This document shows, piece after piece, positions 1,589 through 13,500 of a DNA stretch of 13,500 nucleotides (its first letter is position 1; each line of letters opens with the position of its first letter). The translations under genes and the position numbers were made by a program. The DNA comes from a virus (Duplodnaviria > Heunggongvirae > Uroviricota > Caudoviricetes): positions 151,000-164,499 of the IMG/VR virus record IMGVR_UViG_3300032293_000813. The stretch is one strand, 5' to 3'. Below the pieces are notes generated by a model. The model had not been told where the DNA came from and did not search any database. It worked only from the letters and a program-made list of their open reading frames with translations.

Positions 1589-2131
1589 TTATATCAATCT
1601 ATTAATACTATCTTTCTTAAAATCAACTATCATATGAATTCGCTCCACATTTGAATCATTGATAACTCCATGCTTTTCACCACCATTGTTTATCTCCCAT
1701 ATCTCCCCAACCTTTAGGTGTTTACTCTCTCCACCAACCGTAAATATACACCCTTCATTAGTCTGTAATGGTATATGTGTTCTATTGTGTGTTTCCAATG
1801 AGCCTCCATAATCAATATGCGTAGGAACTTTACTGAAAGGTGGCATACTAACTATTTCTATTCGTATGATATTACCCACTCCTAATATACTATTATATAA
1901 TATGTTTAATTCATCAACATCAGTTTCAAATATATTATAGAACTTAGACCTATTTCCTATAAATGCTGAATACTCTTCATCATATAATATGGGTATAGTT
2001 TTAGTCTTTCTATGCACTTCATATGTATCTTGTCTAAATGTATAAGCATTCCAATCCTCATCGGTTAGAGTGTTTAACTTATTCATCCAATGTTCTATGT
2101 TATAGTTTCCTAAAAATATAAAGTTATCCAT
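1589..2131 (-). CDS. Aspartyl/asparaginyl beta-hydroxylase-like 2OG-Fe(II) oxygenase (cupin fold)
   Basis: H-x-D motif (THIDYG), RTHIPLQTN, distal His in KHGVIN, RIHMIVD; pattern typical of this family. Confidence 0.75.
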   Translation of the reverse strand: MDNFIFLGNYNIEHWMNKLNTLTDEDWNAYTFRQDTYEVHRKTKTIPILYDEEYSAFIGNRSKFYNIFETDVDELNILYNSILGVGNIIRIEIVSMPPFSKVPTHIDYGGSLETHNRTHIPLQTNEGCIFTVGGESKHLKVGEIWEINNGGEKHGVINDSNVERIHMIVDFKKDSINRLI

Positions 2132-3332
2132 CGATATCTTTTCTAAAAGGTTTTGACCATTTTGGTTTAATTAATTTCCAAATGATATCATCATGTGGTT
2201 TCTTATCCCACATTGAAAATAATATAGGTCGTAATACATCCTGTTGCTTCATAACAAATTCAGCAAACTCTTTCTTAGTTGGCTCCGGGTCTACATCACC
2301 ATACTTACCATATCGGAATCCATCATGCAACTTACCGGCTCTTTCGCTGATATGAAAGAAACTATATCTCAAATTCATAGCAACCCGCTTTACCCAATCA
2401 TCAAACTCATCGGGTACTCTTTCTAAGAACTCATTCATATCACCTTTGGTTCTTAACACCTCCCATATATCAGTAGTTGAAAAGTTGGTAAGGATTCTAT
2501 GTAATCGAACATACTCATCACCTTTGATTTTCATTCTCATTCCATTTCTGAAACGGATAACATATCCTTCTTTGGCATTTGATATCTCCCTTTTCAATAC
2601 ATCAAATCCTTCACCAAAAGTATTGTATTTCGTAACCAAAGGAATACCTGTTACTTCTGATTCATTACACATTGTAACATAATCCAATTCCTCTCCGCTA
2701 TCAGTTCTAATAATACCTAACAATACTAATTTTTCATCACTACCATAATCTAATACTATACGATTTTCAGGATAAATGATTTCAAATAAGTAAGTATAAT
2801 TTTCCATCAACTGAGTAACATTATATGTATTCAATAACTCTCTAGCCTTTACAGATTGCTCTGATGTAAACGAACCTCTAGTTGCTACATGCCATTCTCC
2901 TTTTGTTGTCGGAGTTGGATGAAAATATGGGTCATCAAAGTCCGGAACAATATCTTCATAATATTCCATACCGGTTTCATAGTTACCATTGAACCATAAT
3001 CTATACCTTTCACTATATGTTAATTCTCTCTCATAATAAAAGCATATACCTAACGAACCATCCATTTTCTCATACACATCAAAGTACTCATTTGGAATTT
3101 CATCCGCAGTATGCTCTTCGTAGTTAAAGAATTTAGGGAATGGTTTAGCGATTACATTACCTTCGTTATCTAATACCAACCCTCTACAATTTAAGGTAAT
3201 ATCATCCCACATCTCGCCATATTGACAAGAACGTGAATAGTTGTAGATTGATAAAGGCAAAGTTGGGTGAACTTGCTTTATTACCAATCCTCTTTCTATG
3301 TAATCATTCAATATGTTTAAATCGTATTTCAT
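2124..3332 (-). CDS. T4 Rnl1-like ATP-dependent RNA ligase
   Basis: CRGLVLD, PFPKFFNYEE, motif I EKMDGSLG, ATRGSF, TYLFEII, EGYVIRF, MKIKGDEY. Start placed at ATG 3332 (MKYDL) rather than 3380 because a small upstream ORF ends at 3337. Confidence 0.88.
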   Translation of the reverse strand: MKYDLNILNDYIERGLVIKQVHPTLPLSIYNYSRSCQYGEMWDDITLNCRGLVLDNEGNVIAKPFPKFFNYEEHTADEIPNEYFDVYEKMDGSLGICFYYERELTYSERYRLWFNGNYETGMEYYEDIVPDFDDPYFHPTPTTKGEWHVATRGSFTSEQSVKARELLNTYNVTQLMENYTYLFEIIYPENRIVLDYGSDEKLVLLGIIRTDSGEELDYVTMCNESEVTGIPLVTKYNTFGEGFDVLKREISNAKEGYVIRFRNGMRMKIKGDEYVRLHRILTNFSTTDIWEVLRTKGDMNEFLERVPDEFDDWVKRVAMNLRYSFFHISERAGKLHDGFRYGKYGDVDPEPTKKEFAEFVMKQQDVLRPILFSMWDKKPHDDIIWKLIKPKWSKPFRKDIDG

Positions 3333-3336
3333 TTTT

Positions 3337-3432
3337 TTAAAATTTACCCCATTGGGATTTATCTCTATTTTGTTCTGCAATCTTAAATCCTAATAGGATA
3401 TCATTAAAGAATTGCTTGATTTTTTTTATCAT
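3337..3432 (-). CDS. Small 31-aa hypothetical protein MIKKIKQFFNDILLGFKIAEQNRDKSQWGKF
   Basis: ATG overlaps the kinase stop (ATGA overlap at 3429-3432); its TAA ends 4 nt before the ligase ATG; exactly fills the gap. Confidence 0.5.
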   Translation of the reverse strand: MIKKIKQFFNDILLGFKIAEQNRDKSQWGKF

Positions 3433-3845
3433 AATTTTATATTAAATCTATTTTTCATTTGTTCTAACTTATCAGCAGGAACTCCATGTTGATTTACTCC
3501 ACCATGTCTATTCTCTACAATAATAGTGAATATCATATAACCATATTTTTCTGCTAACTTAAAATATTCTTCCATCTCCCACTCTTGAGTAAATGTATTT
3601 GATACTACAATCTCTGGATAGAATTGTGGATTGACTTCGTTATCTTTCATTCTGATTTCCACTTGTTCTTTACACCACTTATGTGCATCTTTTATTTTAG
3701 AACCATCAAAATTATAGTTCCCTTCTTTATCATAAAAGAATTTATCTGCTTCACAAATTGCGTAATCGTTCCAAATGAAACCTGCTAATGTTGATTTACC
3801 ACTTCCTGGCAATCCTCTTACTAATGTTAATACTTTTGGTATCAT
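3429..3845 (-). CDS. P-loop kinase (AAA_33 / polynucleotide 5'-kinase-like)
   Basis: Walker A RGLPGSGKST, EADKFF, VVSNTF, HGVP..KL..M..RF C-terminal motif. Start placed at ATG 3845 (MIPKV) to avoid overlap with the upstream gene. Confidence 0.8.
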   Translation of the reverse strand: MIPKVLTLVRGLPGSGKSTLAGFIWNDYAICEADKFFYDKEGNYNFDGSKIKDAHKWCKEQVEIRMKDNEVNPQFYPEIVVSNTFTQEWEMEEYFKLAEKYGYMIFTIIVENRHGGVNQHGVPADKLEQMKNRFNIKL

Positions 3846-3858
3846 AACTTTTATTTTT

Positions 3859-4170
3859 TTATAATTGACCTCCCAATAATGCTTCATTCATATTCTTAGC
3901 ATCATATTCTTTTACTAATTTATTTATTTTTTCTTCTATACCATTTGAAATTATAGTTTCTAATGAGTTAGGCATATCAGTATTGAAATAAAATCTAGAC
4001 ATATTAAATTTCAATTTTATTTGAGAATATTTAAAACCAGGAATAGTTACCAATCCTTTATCAAATATACTATCTAAGTATTCTGTTACTGATGGGATGT
4101 TTATATCCAATCCGTAATGTCCTTCTTCTAAATAATCTTTATACTTTTTGTTGAATTCTTGTGTTGTCAT
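3859..4170 (-). CDS. Hypothetical protein (103 aa)
   Basis: Tightly packed ORF; SQIKLKFNMSRFY resembles a QIKEKF..LRFY-type motif I associate with phage hypothetical proteins. Confidence 0.65.
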   Translation of the reverse strand: MTTQEFNKKYKDYLEEGHYGLDINIPSVTEYLDSIFDKGLVTIPGFKYSQIKLKFNMSRFYFNTDMPNSLETIISNGIEEKINKLVKEYDAKNMNEALLGGQL

Positions 4171-4176
4171 CTATCT

Positions 4177-4428
4177 TTATTTATTTAAAAACCATTTTCC
4201 AAATGTAAATATTGTTTTCCAACTACCCAATATTAATAACATAGGTATTATAATCGGCCAAAATATAGAGAATGCAGTAAATGCTTGTTCATTGCTATCC
4301 CAGTCATCCCAACCATGTAGTTCATTTTCTTTTTTATTATAATTAAATCCAATTTTCACTCCAAAGTATTTGAAAAATGTTAGTGTTAAGAAAAATCCTA
4401 TTATGTATATTGTTATTATTGTTATCAT
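4177..4428 (-). CDS. Small membrane protein (two hydrophobic segments)
   Basis: Hydrophobic N-terminus and FTAFSIFWPIIIPMLLILG segment; ATGA overlap with the upstream ORF. Confidence 0.65.
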   Translation of the reverse strand: MITIITIYIIGFFLTLTFFKYFGVKIGFNYNKKENELHGWDDWDSNEQAFTAFSIFWPIIIPMLLILGSWKTIFTFGKWFLNK

Positions 4429-4642: not shown

Positions 4643-5296
4643 TTATTTATAATTTTCGGTTATTTCGTGATGGTCTTTACTGAATAAACTTTTTACAGGT
4701 CTATCCCTCATAATAGATAATATCTCACTCATATCAATTGGATACAAATCATTACCTTCACATCCCACATCCATCATCTTACCTTCTTGCAATCTCATTG
4801 ATGGGTCAAAGTGAACGTGCCCATGCAAATGTATTGCACCTCTTGCCATATTATCCCAACTTGCTATTGGAAAGTGCATTAGAGCAAATCTTACATCACC
4901 TTGCAATGGAGTACCAACATTATACTTTACAACCAAATCTAAATATTTGTTTACTGAACTGAATAAAGATTGAACTCCATCTTTGTTGTTACCAATATGA
5001 TGGTCGTGATTACCTAGTATTAAGTGAATGTTTTTACATACCAATTGGTCTCTGAACTTTTGTATAGATTCAAAGCCACCAAAACTCCAATCACCTAAAT
5101 GAAATAAGATGTCATCTTGTCCAACTTTCTCATTGATATTACATACCAATGTGTTGTTCATATGCTCCAACGATTTGAAATCCCTTAATGTTACAGGGTT
5201 AGTCCACTTTGTTGTAGATGAACAAATGTTATCGTGGTTATAGTGTGTATCACTAGTGAACCACAATCTTTGACCTTTATTTAAGTTTATTTTCAT
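4643..5296 (-). CDS. Calcineurin-like metallophosphoesterase
   Basis: All five metal motifs: SDTH, LGD, GNHD, MHFP, HGHVH. Confidence 0.9.
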   Translation of the reverse strand: MKINLNKGQRLWFTSDTHYNHDNICSSTTKWTNPVTLRDFKSLEHMNNTLVCNINEKVGQDDILFHLGDWSFGGFESIQKFRDQLVCKNIHLILGNHDHHIGNNKDGVQSLFSSVNKYLDLVVKYNVGTPLQGDVRFALMHFPIASWDNMARGAIHLHGHVHFDPSMRLQEGKMMDVGCEGNDLYPIDMSEILSIMRDRPVKSLFSKDHHEITENYK

Positions 5297-6402
5297 TATT
5301 CGTATTCTTCTCTGTTAATATTAATTACATATGGGAAACGAGGAATACCATCCGGTGTTAAATTGAAGTACTGAATAGTAGCAGATTTACCAATTAACTT
5401 ACTCTTACTTTTTAGTATCTCTGCTCCTTCTTCCCAACTACACTTAACGTTTGATTTAAACCTCTTGCCTTCGATTTCAAACACCATATAACCCACCTGG
5501 CCGGTCTTATTACCTTCACCCTCACATATATCTAAGATGGGAAATTCACTATCCTGAAACGATTTATGCTTCAATAGGAACTTACTTCTCTTATTTTCAT
5601 AAAGACCGTTTAGTCGTAAGATTTGCCCCTCATATCCCTTCTCTACATATCCTTCATACAACTCCATTACTTCTTTCTCACTTCTACACACATCAGTATC
5701 AACATTTATACAATGTGAATTAAAGTAACTCCATTCTGTAAATAGATTATATAGAGATTGACTTCTGATTTCAAATGTATCATCTACGCTTGGTAAATCA
5801 TATATCCAATACTGAATATTCTTTTTACTTTCCGCCAAATCTTCCGCAGTTGGCTTAGTTCGTTTTACTAATGATACAATCTTATTAAAATCATTAGCAA
5901 ACTTATCAGCATATAACTCACCATCAAATATCAATTGAGGATTAGTTTCAAATAGGGGTTTCAATGAATTAAAGATGTGTGGTGCTGAAATGATTACTTT
6001 ACCATTACGACTAAACATTCCTTCACTTGTCACAATACATCTAATACCATCTAATTTTGGTTGTGAGAATATTGGGTAAGCAATCTTATCTTTACTATCT
6101 TCCCACTTACTCGCCAACATTGGTTCAAAGTATTGTTGTTCGTTGATGTTATTTATATCTTCGAAGTAACCACTTTCTAACTTCTTAGTTCTTTTTGCTA
6201 CCGCTTCCGCTAATGCCTGTTCTTCATCAGTAGTTGAATTTGCTCTACCTACATTCTTACCAAAACAAACTGTCCATTCATTGGTAGATATTACACCACC
6301 AACTTGTCCACTATGTGTTCGGTATTTATTACCTTCAACTTCGATACTCCACTCCTGCGTAGCACCTGTTTTTGTTTTCTTATATATTGTTTGTAACTTC
6401 AT
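5296..6402 (-). CDS. ATP-dependent DNA ligase with N-terminal extension
   Basis: Motif I QPKLDGIRC, FDGELY, YWIYDLP, GYEGQILR, LLKHK, C-terminal OB-fold motif TIQYFNLTPDGIPRFP. Confidence 0.92.
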   Translation of the reverse strand: MKLQTIYKKTKTGATQEWSIEVEGNKYRTHSGQVGGVISTNEWTVCFGKNVGRANSTTDEEQALAEAVAKRTKKLESGYFEDINNINEQQYFEPMLASKWEDSKDKIAYPIFSQPKLDGIRCIVTSEGMFSRNGKVIISAPHIFNSLKPLFETNPQLIFDGELYADKFANDFNKIVSLVKRTKPTAEDLAESKKNIQYWIYDLPSVDDTFEIRSQSLYNLFTEWSYFNSHCINVDTDVCRSEKEVMELYEGYVEKGYEGQILRLNGLYENKRSKFLLKHKSFQDSEFPILDICEGEGNKTGQVGYMVFEIEGKRFKSNVKCSWEEGAEILKSKSKLIGKSATIQYFNLTPDGIPRFPYVININREEYE

Positions 6403-8177: not shown

Positions 8178-8732
8178 TTATAATTTGAATGTTGGTAATA
8201 CTTTATCTTTATGTGATACTTTCATTTCTATTTCTCTCACTCCCCAATCTATATTAAGCGTTGGGTCATTATATACAATACCACCTTCTGATTCTTTGTT
8301 ATAATAGTTATCCACTTTGTAATTGAATAACGCTACTTTTGATAAAACTGAGAATCCATGCCCACATCCTTTCGGCACAAATACCATCTTACCATTCTTA
8401 TCACTTAAATCAACGGTGATATGTTTACCATAAGTTTCCGAATCATGCCTTAAATCTACAATCACATCTCTAACTAAACCATACGAACATCTAACTAACT
8501 TTGATTGTGCCCATTCTCCTTGCTGAAAATGAATACCTCTTACAACTCCATAATTAGAAAATGATTCGTTATCCTGCACAAAGGTAACGTTATGACCTAA
8601 TGTAAGTTTTAATACATCTTCAAACACATCTTTAACATAAGGTGTTGAAAAGTATCCCCTCTCATCTTTATAGATTTCAGGCTTTACAATGAAACAATCT
8701 TTGATTTTGGTTTTCTCTAATTTGTATTCCAT
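8178..8732 (-). CDS. rmlC: dTDP-4-dehydrorhamnose 3,5-epimerase
   Basis: DERGYF, FVQDNESFS..GVVRGIHFQ, KLVRC, DVIVDLR, VPKGCGHGF, YKVDNYY, YNDPTLNIDW, S.KD. Confidence 0.93.
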   Translation of the reverse strand: MEYKLEKTKIKDCFIVKPEIYKDERGYFSTPYVKDVFEDVLKLTLGHNVTFVQDNESFSNYGVVRGIHFQQGEWAQSKLVRCSYGLVRDVIVDLRHDSETYGKHITVDLSDKNGKMVFVPKGCGHGFSVLSKVALFNYKVDNYYNKESEGGIVYNDPTLNIDWGVREIEMKVSHKDKVLPTFKL

Positions 8733-8748
8733 AACTATTTTTAATTTG

Positions 8749-8896
8749 CTGTAAGAGATGGATTCGAACCACCACGATGCGATTCAGTAAGTAACACTTT
8801 GCCGGCCGGCTGGTGGTCTACCCCATATTACTTACCTATTTCGTGCTCATCACCCCCGAGACAGGAGGGCTTGTCTGCCAATTTCAACACCTTACA
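8749..8896 (-). ncRNA. tRNA-like RNA with GUC anticodon and 79-nt branched variable arm
   Basis: Acceptor TGTAAGG/TCTTACA + G73; class II-type D arm TTG-AAATTGGCAGA-CAA; anticodon arm CCCTC-CTGTCTC-GGGGG; T arm GGTGG-TTCGAAT-CCATC; insert 8774-8852. Confidence 0.75.
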
Positions 8897-8901
8897 CTTT
8901 G

Positions 8902-8986
8902 CGGAGAAACAGGGATTCGAACCCCAGATACCTTTCAGTATGCCGGTTTTCAAGACCGGTGCATTCAACCACTCTGCCATTTCTCC
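8902..8986 (-). tRNA. tRNA-Ser(TGA)
   Basis: GGAGAAA/TTTCTCC acceptor, CCGGT-CTTGAAA-ACCGG, long variable arm, TTCGAAT loop, G73. Confidence 0.95.
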
Positions 8987-9001
8987 TAATATCGTTAGAT
9001 A

Positions 9002-9574
9002 TTATTTTATTCTAAAGTTATATCCAAATGTTAAAAAAGGTGTTGGAGGTGCGTAATCAGTTCTCATTGTTACTCCTACTCCTATTTGATAAATATCACT
9101 TTTTTTACTCTTAATCAACAAATTAGCACCATACCAATCAACAATTTGTTTTGAATTAGCTTTAAGATTATACCCCACATAGTATTCGGTTTGTGGTGGA
9201 ATAGGTGTTGGTAATTCAACGTATTCGGTTCTTACCTTTACAATTGGTTTGGCTTCAACTATCTGTGGTTTTACAATCGTATCATGTACTATAATCGTAT
9301 CATGCATACTTGCTACTTCCAATAATTGAGCAATCTTATCAAACTCAATTTTAGCAGGTATTTGCTTTTCTCTAGTGATGTATTTAGTCTTGTAAATAGT
9401 ATCCAATTGGGTAACTATTTTTTCAAGATAAACCGTATCCGTTGCTGGCTCACTAATAACCGCCGCAGGGATGTTCGTATTGGACTCCTTAACTTTATTG
9501 CTAAGATTACCACACTTTAATACTAATAGCACTCCCACTATTAATATTACCACAAATATAACCACTTTTTTCAT
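9002..9574 (-). CDS. Hypothetical membrane-anchored or secreted protein
   Basis: MKK + hydrophobic stretch + Cys; DTV/DTI repeats ([11 protein letters not shown]); beta-rich C-terminus. ATG 9574 preferred over the track start at 9580. Confidence 0.7.
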
Positions 9575-9594
9575 TTTCACCCATAGATAGAATC

Positions 9595-11457: not shown

Positions 11458-11460
11458 TTG

Positions 11461-11534
11461 CGGAATGTATGGGACTCGAACCCATGACCTCATCCGTGAC
11501 AGGGATGCATTCTAACCAACTGAACTAACACTCC
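11461..11534 (-). tRNA. tRNA-Asp(GTC)
   Basis: GGAGTGT/ACATTCC, CATCC-CTGTCAC-GGATG, G73. Confidence 0.96.
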
Positions 11535-13439: not shown

Positions 13440-13500
13440 TGGTCGGAATAGCAGGATTCGAACCTGCGTGCTCCACATCCCAAATGTGGCGAGATAGACC
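13440..13500 (-). tRNA. tRNA-Pro(TGG), 5' end outside the window
   Basis: CCACA-TTTGGGA-TGTGG, GCAGG-TTCGAAT-CCTGC, A73-CCA. Confidence 0.9.

Follow-up and report, generated by a model that had tools for sequence, protein, structure and literature searches.

A tRNA-shaped RNA with an aspartate-type anticodon loop and a large branched variable arm, apparently common to freshwater phages and Cytophagales bacteria

Results

The stretch of DNA analysed here (the window, 13,500 nt; positions 151,000 to 164,499 of IMG/VR record IMGVR_UViG_3300032293_000813) is the final 13.5 kb of a 164.5-kb freshwater phage record, 32.7% GC, which is about 83% complete. At least 17 tRNA genes, called with ARAGORN and Rfam, are clustered on its minus strand. 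The last RNA gene of the cluster (8896 to 8749, minus strand) specifies a tRNA-like RNA of 148 nt and is followed after 16 nt by an open reading frame (ORF) for an RmlC-like epimerase. It lies directly behind a tRNA-Ser gene, and this two-gene module recurs in many phage loci. The coordinates of the RNA, of its helices and of the neighbouring genes are collected in Table 1.

A first-pass annotation, made from the sequence alone, had described a 148-nt tRNA-like RNA with a 79-nt branched variable arm, and had placed a separate, normal tRNA-Asp(GTC) at 11461. The cloverleaf was confirmed by hand reading at every coordinate, and so was the arm, with its first helix (P1), a 10-11-bp helix (P2), a hairpin (P3) and a self-complementary decamer (P4); the normal tRNA-Asp gene was also found. 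The two ends of the RNA pair as a plain acceptor stem. The nucleotides of the L-shaped core are present (U8, A14, G18G19, T loop UUCGAAU, a 7-bp acceptor stem and a 5-bp T stem) and correspond to invariant columns in both family alignments described below (A2 and A3). A pairing of AGACA in the D loop with UGUCU in the anticodon loop was noted and set aside: a much stronger stem stands in competition with it, and within the L-shape it is implausible on steric grounds.

Table 1. Positions of the tRNA-like RNA, its structural elements and selected neighbouring genes in the window
Feature	Position	Strand	Details
Whole tRNA-shaped RNA	8749..8896	-	5' end 8896, discriminator G73 at 8749, C74 at 8748; read by hand
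Acceptor stem	8896-8890 (UGUAAGG) with 8756-8750 (UCUUACA)	-	7 bp, final pair G-U
D arm	8887-8871	-	3-bp stem UUG/CAA, 11-nt loop with A14 and G18G19; class II, tRNA-Leu-like
Anticodon arm CCCUC/CUGUCUC/GGGGG	8869-8853	-	Loop 8858-8864, GUC 8860-8862, U37, C38
Variable arm, 79 nt	8852-8774	-	Holds P1, internal loop, P2, P3 and P4
P1 (UGAUG/CAUCG)	8848-8852 with 8775-8779	-	First helix of the variable arm
Variable-arm internal loop	8836-8847 and 8780-8786	-	Between P1 and P2
P2, 10-11 bp	8836-8826 with 8796-8786 (10-bp core 8826-8835 with 8787-8796)	-	
P3 hairpin UGGGG-UAGA-CCACCA	8811..8825	-	Contains the conserved GACCAC
P4 perfect palindrome, decamer GCCGGCCGGC	8801..8810	-	Read by hand
T arm GGUGG/UUCGAAU/CCAUC	8773-8757	-	
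tRNA-Ser(UGA)	8901..8986	-	4-5 nt upstream of the tRNA-like RNA, read as co-transcribed; ARAGORN and Rfam
Normal tRNA-Asp(GTC)	11460-11534		Canonical tRNA gene of the same phage
Small two-helix membrane protein, 85 aa	9595..9852	-	Two hydrophobic segments judged by eye
Rnl1-like RNA ligase, phosphoesterase, ATP-dependent DNA ligase	2124-3380, 4643-5296, 5296-6402	-	PHROG matches

The first-pass annotation had treated the RNA as outside the described classes, and none was matched. ARAGORN, run with and without the intron search, did not call the element and made no transfer-messenger RNA (tmRNA) call at it; Rfam 15 did not call it at the gathering threshold or at E<=10, and no intron family in Rfam was matched. 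An Rfam sX4 hit (31.5 bits against a gathering threshold of 70) was rejected: it covers the tRNA-Ser gene and a portion of the element, and its score comes from the tRNA-like portion.

Relatives were first reached through the neighbouring epimerase gene, which led to two IMG/VR loci with compensatory changes in the acceptor stem, the anticodon stem, P1 and P2. Exact-pattern scans then located relatives at 38 loci in IMG/VR and at 120 or more loci each in metagenomes and in bacterial genomes; 132 unique sequences passed a filter for the T loop and for an acceptor stem with all 7 bp formed. A covariance model (R1) was built on 20 phage members. It scored the window's own element at 172.7 bits, as the sole copy in the 164.5-kb genome, and recovered further bacterial members at 83-135 bits. 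Its next-best matches were always tRNA-Leu genes (36-56 bits; in the same genome tRNA-Leu(UAA), 43.5 bits), and the D-arm pattern also retrieved ordinary phage tRNA-Leu genes.

The proposed pairing was strongly supported by covariation, including that of the insert helices that the first-pass annotation had put forward. Among the 20 phage members 95.9% of the cells in paired columns were paired and 21 pairs had changed on both sides; among 84 distinct members the figures were 95.2% and 35 of 42 pairs, and in neither set did any of 500 shuffles score as high. When the partners of the 84 members were slid, pairing fell to 48-58%. The values for the 84 members come from an alignment fitted to the model (A3), which somewhat favours the structure; a MAFFT alignment (A2) gives the same picture. 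All seven acceptor pairs are formed in every member, with double changes in six of them. P1 has changes on both sides in 3/5 pairs and P2 in 10/10, and the two insert helices are among the best supported of the whole RNA. The anticodon stem covaries as well, in ten variants, and one column pair of P3 (73-85) alternates between G-C and U-A. A likeness of the arm to a hammerhead ribozyme or box C/D RNA (UGAUGAG...GAAA, CUGA) was discarded: UGAUG is a strand of the covarying P1 (elsewhere UGGUG, UGAGG or UGGGG), and no Rfam ribozyme or snoRNA was matched.

Further motifs of the arm are conserved too. GGG(G)U(A/U)GACCAC is kept in the phage members and in one of the two bacterial classes (class B, see below), and the internal loop carries the motifs GAAAUAG/UGAAUC in phages and GAUAAAC/GCUAAC in bacteria. 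Class B and phage RNAs have in common a GAUAAAC/GCUAAC-type internal loop and a GGGUUGACCAC hairpin. The size of the variable arm differs widely across the family: it is a plain hairpin of 20 nt in the smallest form and reaches about 100 nt in the largest, with intermediate forms in which the RNA measures 116-137 nt. In some relatives the variable part of the D loop holds an additional hairpin. The smallest member (locus L118, 90 nt) has an ordinary 20-nt class II arm; when ARAGORN was run on seven IMG/VR-derived members, this was the only one called, as tRNA-Asp. Two members stand in tandem on one phage contig (L107:3961-4107 and 4115-4271), with the anticodon loops UUGUCUA and UUGUCUC and with different variable arms.

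Chromosomal members were found in Cytophagales (Algoriphagus, Echinicola, Mariniradius, Cecembia, Aquiflexum, Ohtaekwangia, Flammeovirgaceae and Roseivirgaceae). They stand alone, away from tRNA genes, with a terminator-like hairpin downstream of each as judged by eye, at 1-5 copies per genome, and the RNA was present in 13/151 evenly sampled Bacteroidota genomes. As with the phage element, the bacterial copies were not called by a tRNA covariance model or by ARAGORN, and Rfam 15 gave no match to them. Two classes were distinguished. Class A RNAs (123-152 nt, often two copies about 540 nt apart) are flanked by a gene for an RluD-type pseudouridine synthase on one side and, on the other, by a gene for a 1449-aa protein that matched no Pfam or NCBIfam family. 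Class B RNAs (about 147 nt) lie between an acyl-CoA synthetase gene and Lrp/AsnC-SufBCD. Short paralogues of 115-118 nt adjoin the long class B copy at three loci (L291:4017-4134, L305:3537-3654 and L322:5161-5275); their anticodon loop reads CGAUCUC instead of CUGUCUC, so that positions 33-34 are altered and U35-C36-U37-C38 are kept. The five Cytophagales genomes checked for it all retain one to three canonical class I tRNA-Asp genes, and the PF00152 enzymes in Cytophagales genomes number exactly three (Asp, Lys and Asn), the usual class IIb synthetases.

The bacterial neighbours were examined for a clue to function. A protein of about 1440 aa is conserved directly beside the class A RNA genes in Cyclobacteriaceae (L264:567-4913 and L273:1617-5927), and in 20 bacterial loci a gene with a Schlafen AlbA_2 domain is found at a distance of about 2 kb from class A RNA genes (for example L328:1405-2040). 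Eukaryotic Schlafens cleave type II tRNAs. The Schlafen linkage may be plain family-level synteny, and the neighbours taken together (RluD-type synthase, 1449-aa protein, acyl-CoA synthetase, Lrp/AsnC, SufBCD and Schlafen) were set aside as a functional clue for looking like just that.

Positions held constant in the family are concentrated at the acceptor end and in the anticodon loop. In the 84 distinct members G2-C71 is invariant, U1-A72 is present in 81 and the discriminator G73 in 83; U35, C36 and a pyrimidine at position 37 are found in all, C38 in 83 and G34 in 80. As the anticodon stem itself covaries, the sequence of its loop is under selection in its own right. U33 gives way to C, G or A in several members, and position 10 is U, or A in 14 members. 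The T loop and G53-C61 are invariant and the core tertiary nucleotides invariant or nearly so; in many phage members the T stem is interrupted by a bulged U. C74 follows G73 in 134/135 members, with CCA encoded in just 11. The identity set of Escherichia coli aspartyl-tRNA synthetase (AspRS) consists of G73, G2-C71, G10, G34, U35, C36 and C38. All of these seven but G10 are invariant or near-invariant in the family; U1-A72 and the pyrimidine at 37 are conserved and lie outside the set. A host tRNA-Asp gene has the same G73-C74 context, together with G10 and a 5-nt variable loop.

The tip of the arm differs between phage and bacterial RNAs. The segment that follows GACCAC is a perfect palindrome of 8-10 nt in 36/40 distinct phage-type sequences, with at least ten different sequences (GCCGGCCGGC, UCCUGCAGGA, GGCGGCCGCC, GCUUGCAAGC, UCCGGCCGGA, UCUUGCAAGA, GUUGCAAC, UGCCGGCA, UGCAUGCA and CAAAAUUUUG), and it is almost the sole difference between some near-identical RNAs. 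The window's own decamer, GCCGGCCGGC, occurs once in the phage genome. A 3-bp hairpin needs no self-complementary tetraloop, and some variants form no hairpin, so the conserved property is the self-complementarity. By nearest-neighbour prediction, two molecules joined as a P4-P4 homodimer are about 19 kcal/mol more stable than two monomers. These observations suggest that the phage-type RNA may homodimerise through its palindromic tip. The class B members showed no palindrome beyond chance; many class A RNAs have GAGCUC (29/50) or a CCGG-centred motif near the arm tip.

Sequences from RNA libraries were compared with the locus. The phage region was found in freshwater and lake metagenomes of 17 studies, and six RNA libraries carry part of it. 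Four freshwater RNA runs were compared with the region, and in their contigs (8746-8870, 8772-8880 and 8757-8989, the third of these stemming from a relative and reaching into tRNA-Ser) the insert runs on into its flanks without a break; no joints around the insert were seen in the contigs of these four runs. Among the contigs are many of just 139-186 nt in which a match to the conserved D and anticodon arms passes into the sequence of a different family member, in part of a bacterial type; some have high word depth.

Around the module, homologues of the 85-aa membrane protein are encoded upstream on the same strand in 40/65 phage-type loci; the protein matched no PHROG family, and it is tied to the module through synteny only. 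In the window an extra ORF of 192 aa (9002-9580) sits between its gene and the module. The ligase and phosphoesterase genes just downstream of the tRNA cluster make up a tRNA-repair-type gene set by their PHROG matches, and the record, at about 83% completeness, encodes no PF01743 CCA enzyme. A 5'-truncated tRNA (Rfam tRNA, 32.9 bits) was found at 13443-13500, where the record ends, so the cluster extends past the window and the end of the contig. Outside the window, ARAGORN called, on the minus strand, a candidate tmRNA whose tag peptide would have 24 residues (G000:C1:99188-99556). The proteins encoded nearby have only distant phage relatives (<60% identity). A blastn search of 8600-9100 against 50,697 phage records matched the tRNA-Ser part alone and returned no cultured-phage relative of the tRNA-like RNA. 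The insert is found once in the 164.5-kb genome, and on this account a miniature inverted-repeat transposable element or other repeat was rejected.

Discussion

The RNA belongs to a family that is common to freshwater phages and Cytophagales bacteria and is apparently undescribed. It may be the same as DNAVirus_1850, a candidate structured RNA with 27 IMG/VR instances, one of them overlapping an ARAGORN tRNA-Asp call (Fremin et al., 2023; PMC10690425); the counts fit, and that article gives a consensus diagram only and describes no bacterial members, identity-element analysis or function. If the two are one, the motif had already been catalogued, yet not analysed. Three bacterial tRNA-mimic families in a 2026 preprint (skipping-rope, DUF2693-FD and salivarius-1) have no anticodon arm, unlike the present RNA. 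Rfam models of tmRNA and YrlA gave no match beyond noise (a 6-bit tmRNA fragment); tmRNA is marked by a tag ORF and pseudoknots, and YrlA by a Ro-binding stem built from its two ends, which in the present RNA form the plain acceptor stem.

Resemblances to other phage RNAs are partial. The species 1 (rnaC) and species 2 (rnaD) RNAs of T4 are likewise small and stable (about 120-140 nt), their genes occupy the distal end of the T4 tRNA cluster, and rnaC has a tRNA-type T arm. They differ in having no sequence or model homology with the family (R1 scored 15 bits on the 3' half of rnaC, as on unrelated class I tRNAs), and rnaC lacks a cloverleaf with D and anticodon arms. RNAs that share an identical Leu-type frame, AGUCAGG...CCUGACU-A, were noted in three phage loci (L117:1583-1678, 1773-1892 and 3043-3145; L029:1326-1428 and 3357-3472; L107:5274-5435), several per locus and with unrelated middles of 96-162 nt; these phages also carry the GUC-type RNA. 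Such cargo RNAs resemble the family in combining a Leu-like acceptor/D/T frame with extra structure, in the same kinds of phage and sometimes on the same contigs. They replace the anticodon arm with their inserts and keep A73, whereas the family keeps the anticodon arm, has G73, carries its extra structure in the variable arm and has bacterial members too. As in the pRNA of phi29 and the dimerisation initiation site (DIS) of HIV-1, which self-associate by way of palindromic or complementary loops, the short self-complementary element varies in sequence and keeps its self-complementarity; the scaffold and the biological context are unrelated, and the dimer proposed here is a prediction.

Compared with tRNAs proper, the RNA joins features of two kinds. 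With class II tRNA-Leu it shares the 7/5 acceptor/T geometry, a variable arm directly after the anticodon stem, the 3-bp D stem and a loop of the type UGUUGRAA...GGCAGACAAG; unlike tRNA-Leu it has G73 in place of A73, U1-A72 and an Asp-type anticodon loop with a pyrimidine at 37, and the variable arm, which reaches about 100 nt in the family, has a junction of its own. Class II tRNAs in general (Leu, Ser and Tyr) have arms of about 10-25 nt, against 79 nt here, and the RNA is set apart from them by its GUC anticodon and by being missed by tRNA finders. With tRNA-Asp it shares G73, G2-C71, G34-U35-C36 and C38, and it departs from tRNA-Asp in its class II body and 79-nt arm, where tRNA-Asp has a class I body and a variable loop of 4-5 nt, in U10, U1-A72 and a pyrimidine for A37, and in coexisting with a canonical tRNA-Asp.

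The reading that we prefer, and to which we give a probability of about one half, is that the RNA is a non-decoding tRNA mimic that would mature like a tRNA and be recognised by a protein that binds tRNAs, with AspRS the most plausible candidate. Codon reading is almost certainly excluded, in view of the pyrimidine at 37, the variable position 33, the bulged T stems, the very large variable arm and the coexisting normal tRNA-Asp. In phages the mimic would be transcribed as part of the tRNA cluster and most likely released by RNase P and 3' trimming, with CCA added afterwards; tRNA-type maturation is proposed because the features needed for RNase P, 3' processing and CCA addition are kept and because the gene lies within a tRNA unit. 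The body may derive from a class II tRNA-Leu. Since the frozen acceptor end, discriminator and anticodon loop resemble a synthetase identity set, with six of the seven Asp elements, the host AspRS would be the likeliest reader, whether it charges the mimic or merely binds it. The variable arm, with its conserved internal loop, its GACCAC hairpin and, in phages only, its self-complementary tip, could be a second functional module that serves another partner and, in phages, self-association as a homodimer. Phages, presumably of Cytophagales hosts, carry elaborated copies, with which they would probably provide this cellular function, or usurp it, in the course of infection.

The first-pass annotation had likewise proposed a tRNA-scaffolded noncoding RNA, neither a decoding tRNA nor an intron-bearing one, and this is borne out: the RNA has conserved relatives with covarying helices, the family fits none of the Rfam or tRNA classes, and the insert is unspliced in RNA-library contigs. 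Two of the roles that it had offered gained indirect support: that of a synthetase mimic from invariant positions that largely match the Asp identity set, with charging itself a prediction, and that of a dimerising RNA from the phage-specific tip, a support that stops short of class B. It had not anticipated that the family is also cellular, that the D arm is specifically tRNA-Leu-like or that arm length varies within the family between 20 and about 100 nt.

Several observations weigh against an AspRS-read, dimerising mimic. G10, an Asp identity element in E. coli, is replaced by U or A; U1-A72 stands in place of G1-C72; and position 34 is A in two members and U in another two. AspRS, a class II synthetase, meets its tRNA from the side of the variable loop, where a 79-nt arm could clash with it, and the combination of Leu-like body, G73 and long arm points just as well to seryl-tRNA synthetase (SerRS). 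No extra AspRS-family paralogue was found in the hosts, nor any PF00152 enzyme in the phage record with its completeness of about 83%. Dimerisation cannot be a family-wide mechanism, as class B has no palindrome, and the phage palindromes are perfectly Watson-Crick, which would also suit a role at the DNA level. The single-sequence fold is no stabler than those of shuffled sequences (minimum free energy (MFE) -43.4 kcal/mol, z = -0.69), and the D arm is missing from the MFE structure; it is thus on the comparison with relatives that the case for function is built. The RNA-library contigs cannot show the ends of the RNA or its CCA, and DNA may be present in the libraries, so these contigs support transcription and do not prove it.

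Among the alternatives, a decoy or sponge for an anticodon nuclease or a type-II-tRNA-specific endonuclease, which would protect tRNAs in infection or regulate an endogenous tRNase, is possible although rather improbable. The place of the RNA in a phage tRNA cluster near an Rnl1-like RNA ligase and a phosphoesterase would suit such a role, as would an anticodon loop far more strictly conserved than decoding requires and, for class A, the Schlafen-domain gene. That gene is nevertheless the nearest nuclease-like one, at about 2 kb, its linkage may be mere synteny as said above, and no toxin gene flanks the RNA directly; in Cytophagales the RNA is a vertically inherited, syntenic gene with housekeeping neighbours, and a decoy for the anticodon loop does not account for the conservation of G2-C71 and G73. 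Somewhat less probable still is a class II carrier charged by SerRS or another synthetase that feeds a non-ribosomal reaction or a tRNA-dependent conversion of an amino acid. The class II body, the Leu-type D arm, G73 and G2-C71 would fit it, as would P1, a regular 5-6-bp helix right after the anticodon stem as in tRNA-Ser, and the 90-nt member with its ordinary arm. SerRS does not read the anticodon. The invariant U35-C36-Y37-C38 would thus be left unexplained, and no candidate transferase or conversion enzyme is linked to the RNA in the bacterial or phage contexts.

That the RNA is a true decoding isoacceptor of tRNA-Asp, able to accommodate a large variable arm, appears decidedly unlikely. 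This reading would have in its favour a complete cloverleaf with a GUC anticodon, G73 and C38, and the ARAGORN call of the 90-nt relative as tRNA-Asp; it is contradicted by the pyrimidine found at 37 in all 84 members, by the replacement of U33 in several members and of position 34 by A or U without other change, by bulged T stems, by the failure of tRNA models to detect the element and by the canonical tRNA-Asp genes of the phage and of all five host genomes checked. The least credible explanation, in our view hardly tenable, is that an intron or a mobile insertion has interrupted a tRNA gene, which is either spliced by cleavage and ligation or decays as a pseudogene. An RNA ligase and a phosphoesterase do lie about 3.5-6.8 kb downstream, and the insert is bounded by helix P1. 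The insert, however, covaries and has conserved loops in phages and bacteria, forms a continuous series of arm lengths from 20 to about 100 nt and is unspliced in the RNA libraries, and for these reasons the gene is taken to be neither intron-bearing nor disrupted. The single occurrence of the insert in the phage genome, its position in the variable region and the lack of any matching Rfam intron family point the same way. Ligase-dependent excision, which the first-pass annotation had entertained, is disfavoured by the conservation of the insert in bacteria that have no ligase neighbour and by RNA contigs that run through it without joints.

To return to the mimic, a bolder form of this reading, which we hold to be speculative and unlikely, is that Cytophagales and their phages share an AspRS-charged look-alike barred from the ribosome, serving as an aspartyl carrier or as a sensor of AspRS or Asp status, with phage forms that are RNA-only homodimers. 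If true, it would mean new aminoacyl-RNA and RNA quaternary-structure biology, in which the phage palindrome would be a variable self-complementary "address".

Non-decoding tRNA-shaped RNAs are known (tmRNA, Y RNAs, the T4 species 1 RNA and mimics of the skipping-rope type), and most of them, to our knowledge, have no known function. The present family is set apart by keeping the whole cloverleaf, by the frozen nucleotides that a synthetase reads, by a large conserved module in the variable arm and by occurring both in phages and as a bacterial core gene. Its changing yet perfect phage palindrome makes it a simple candidate for natural RNA-RNA dimerisation. The gene is chromosomal in cultivable bacteria (Algoriphagus, Echinicola and Mariniradius) and is carried by many large freshwater phages, and with this joint cellular and phage occurrence the role of the non-tRNA RNAs in phage tRNA clusters becomes experimentally tractable in a bacterial host.

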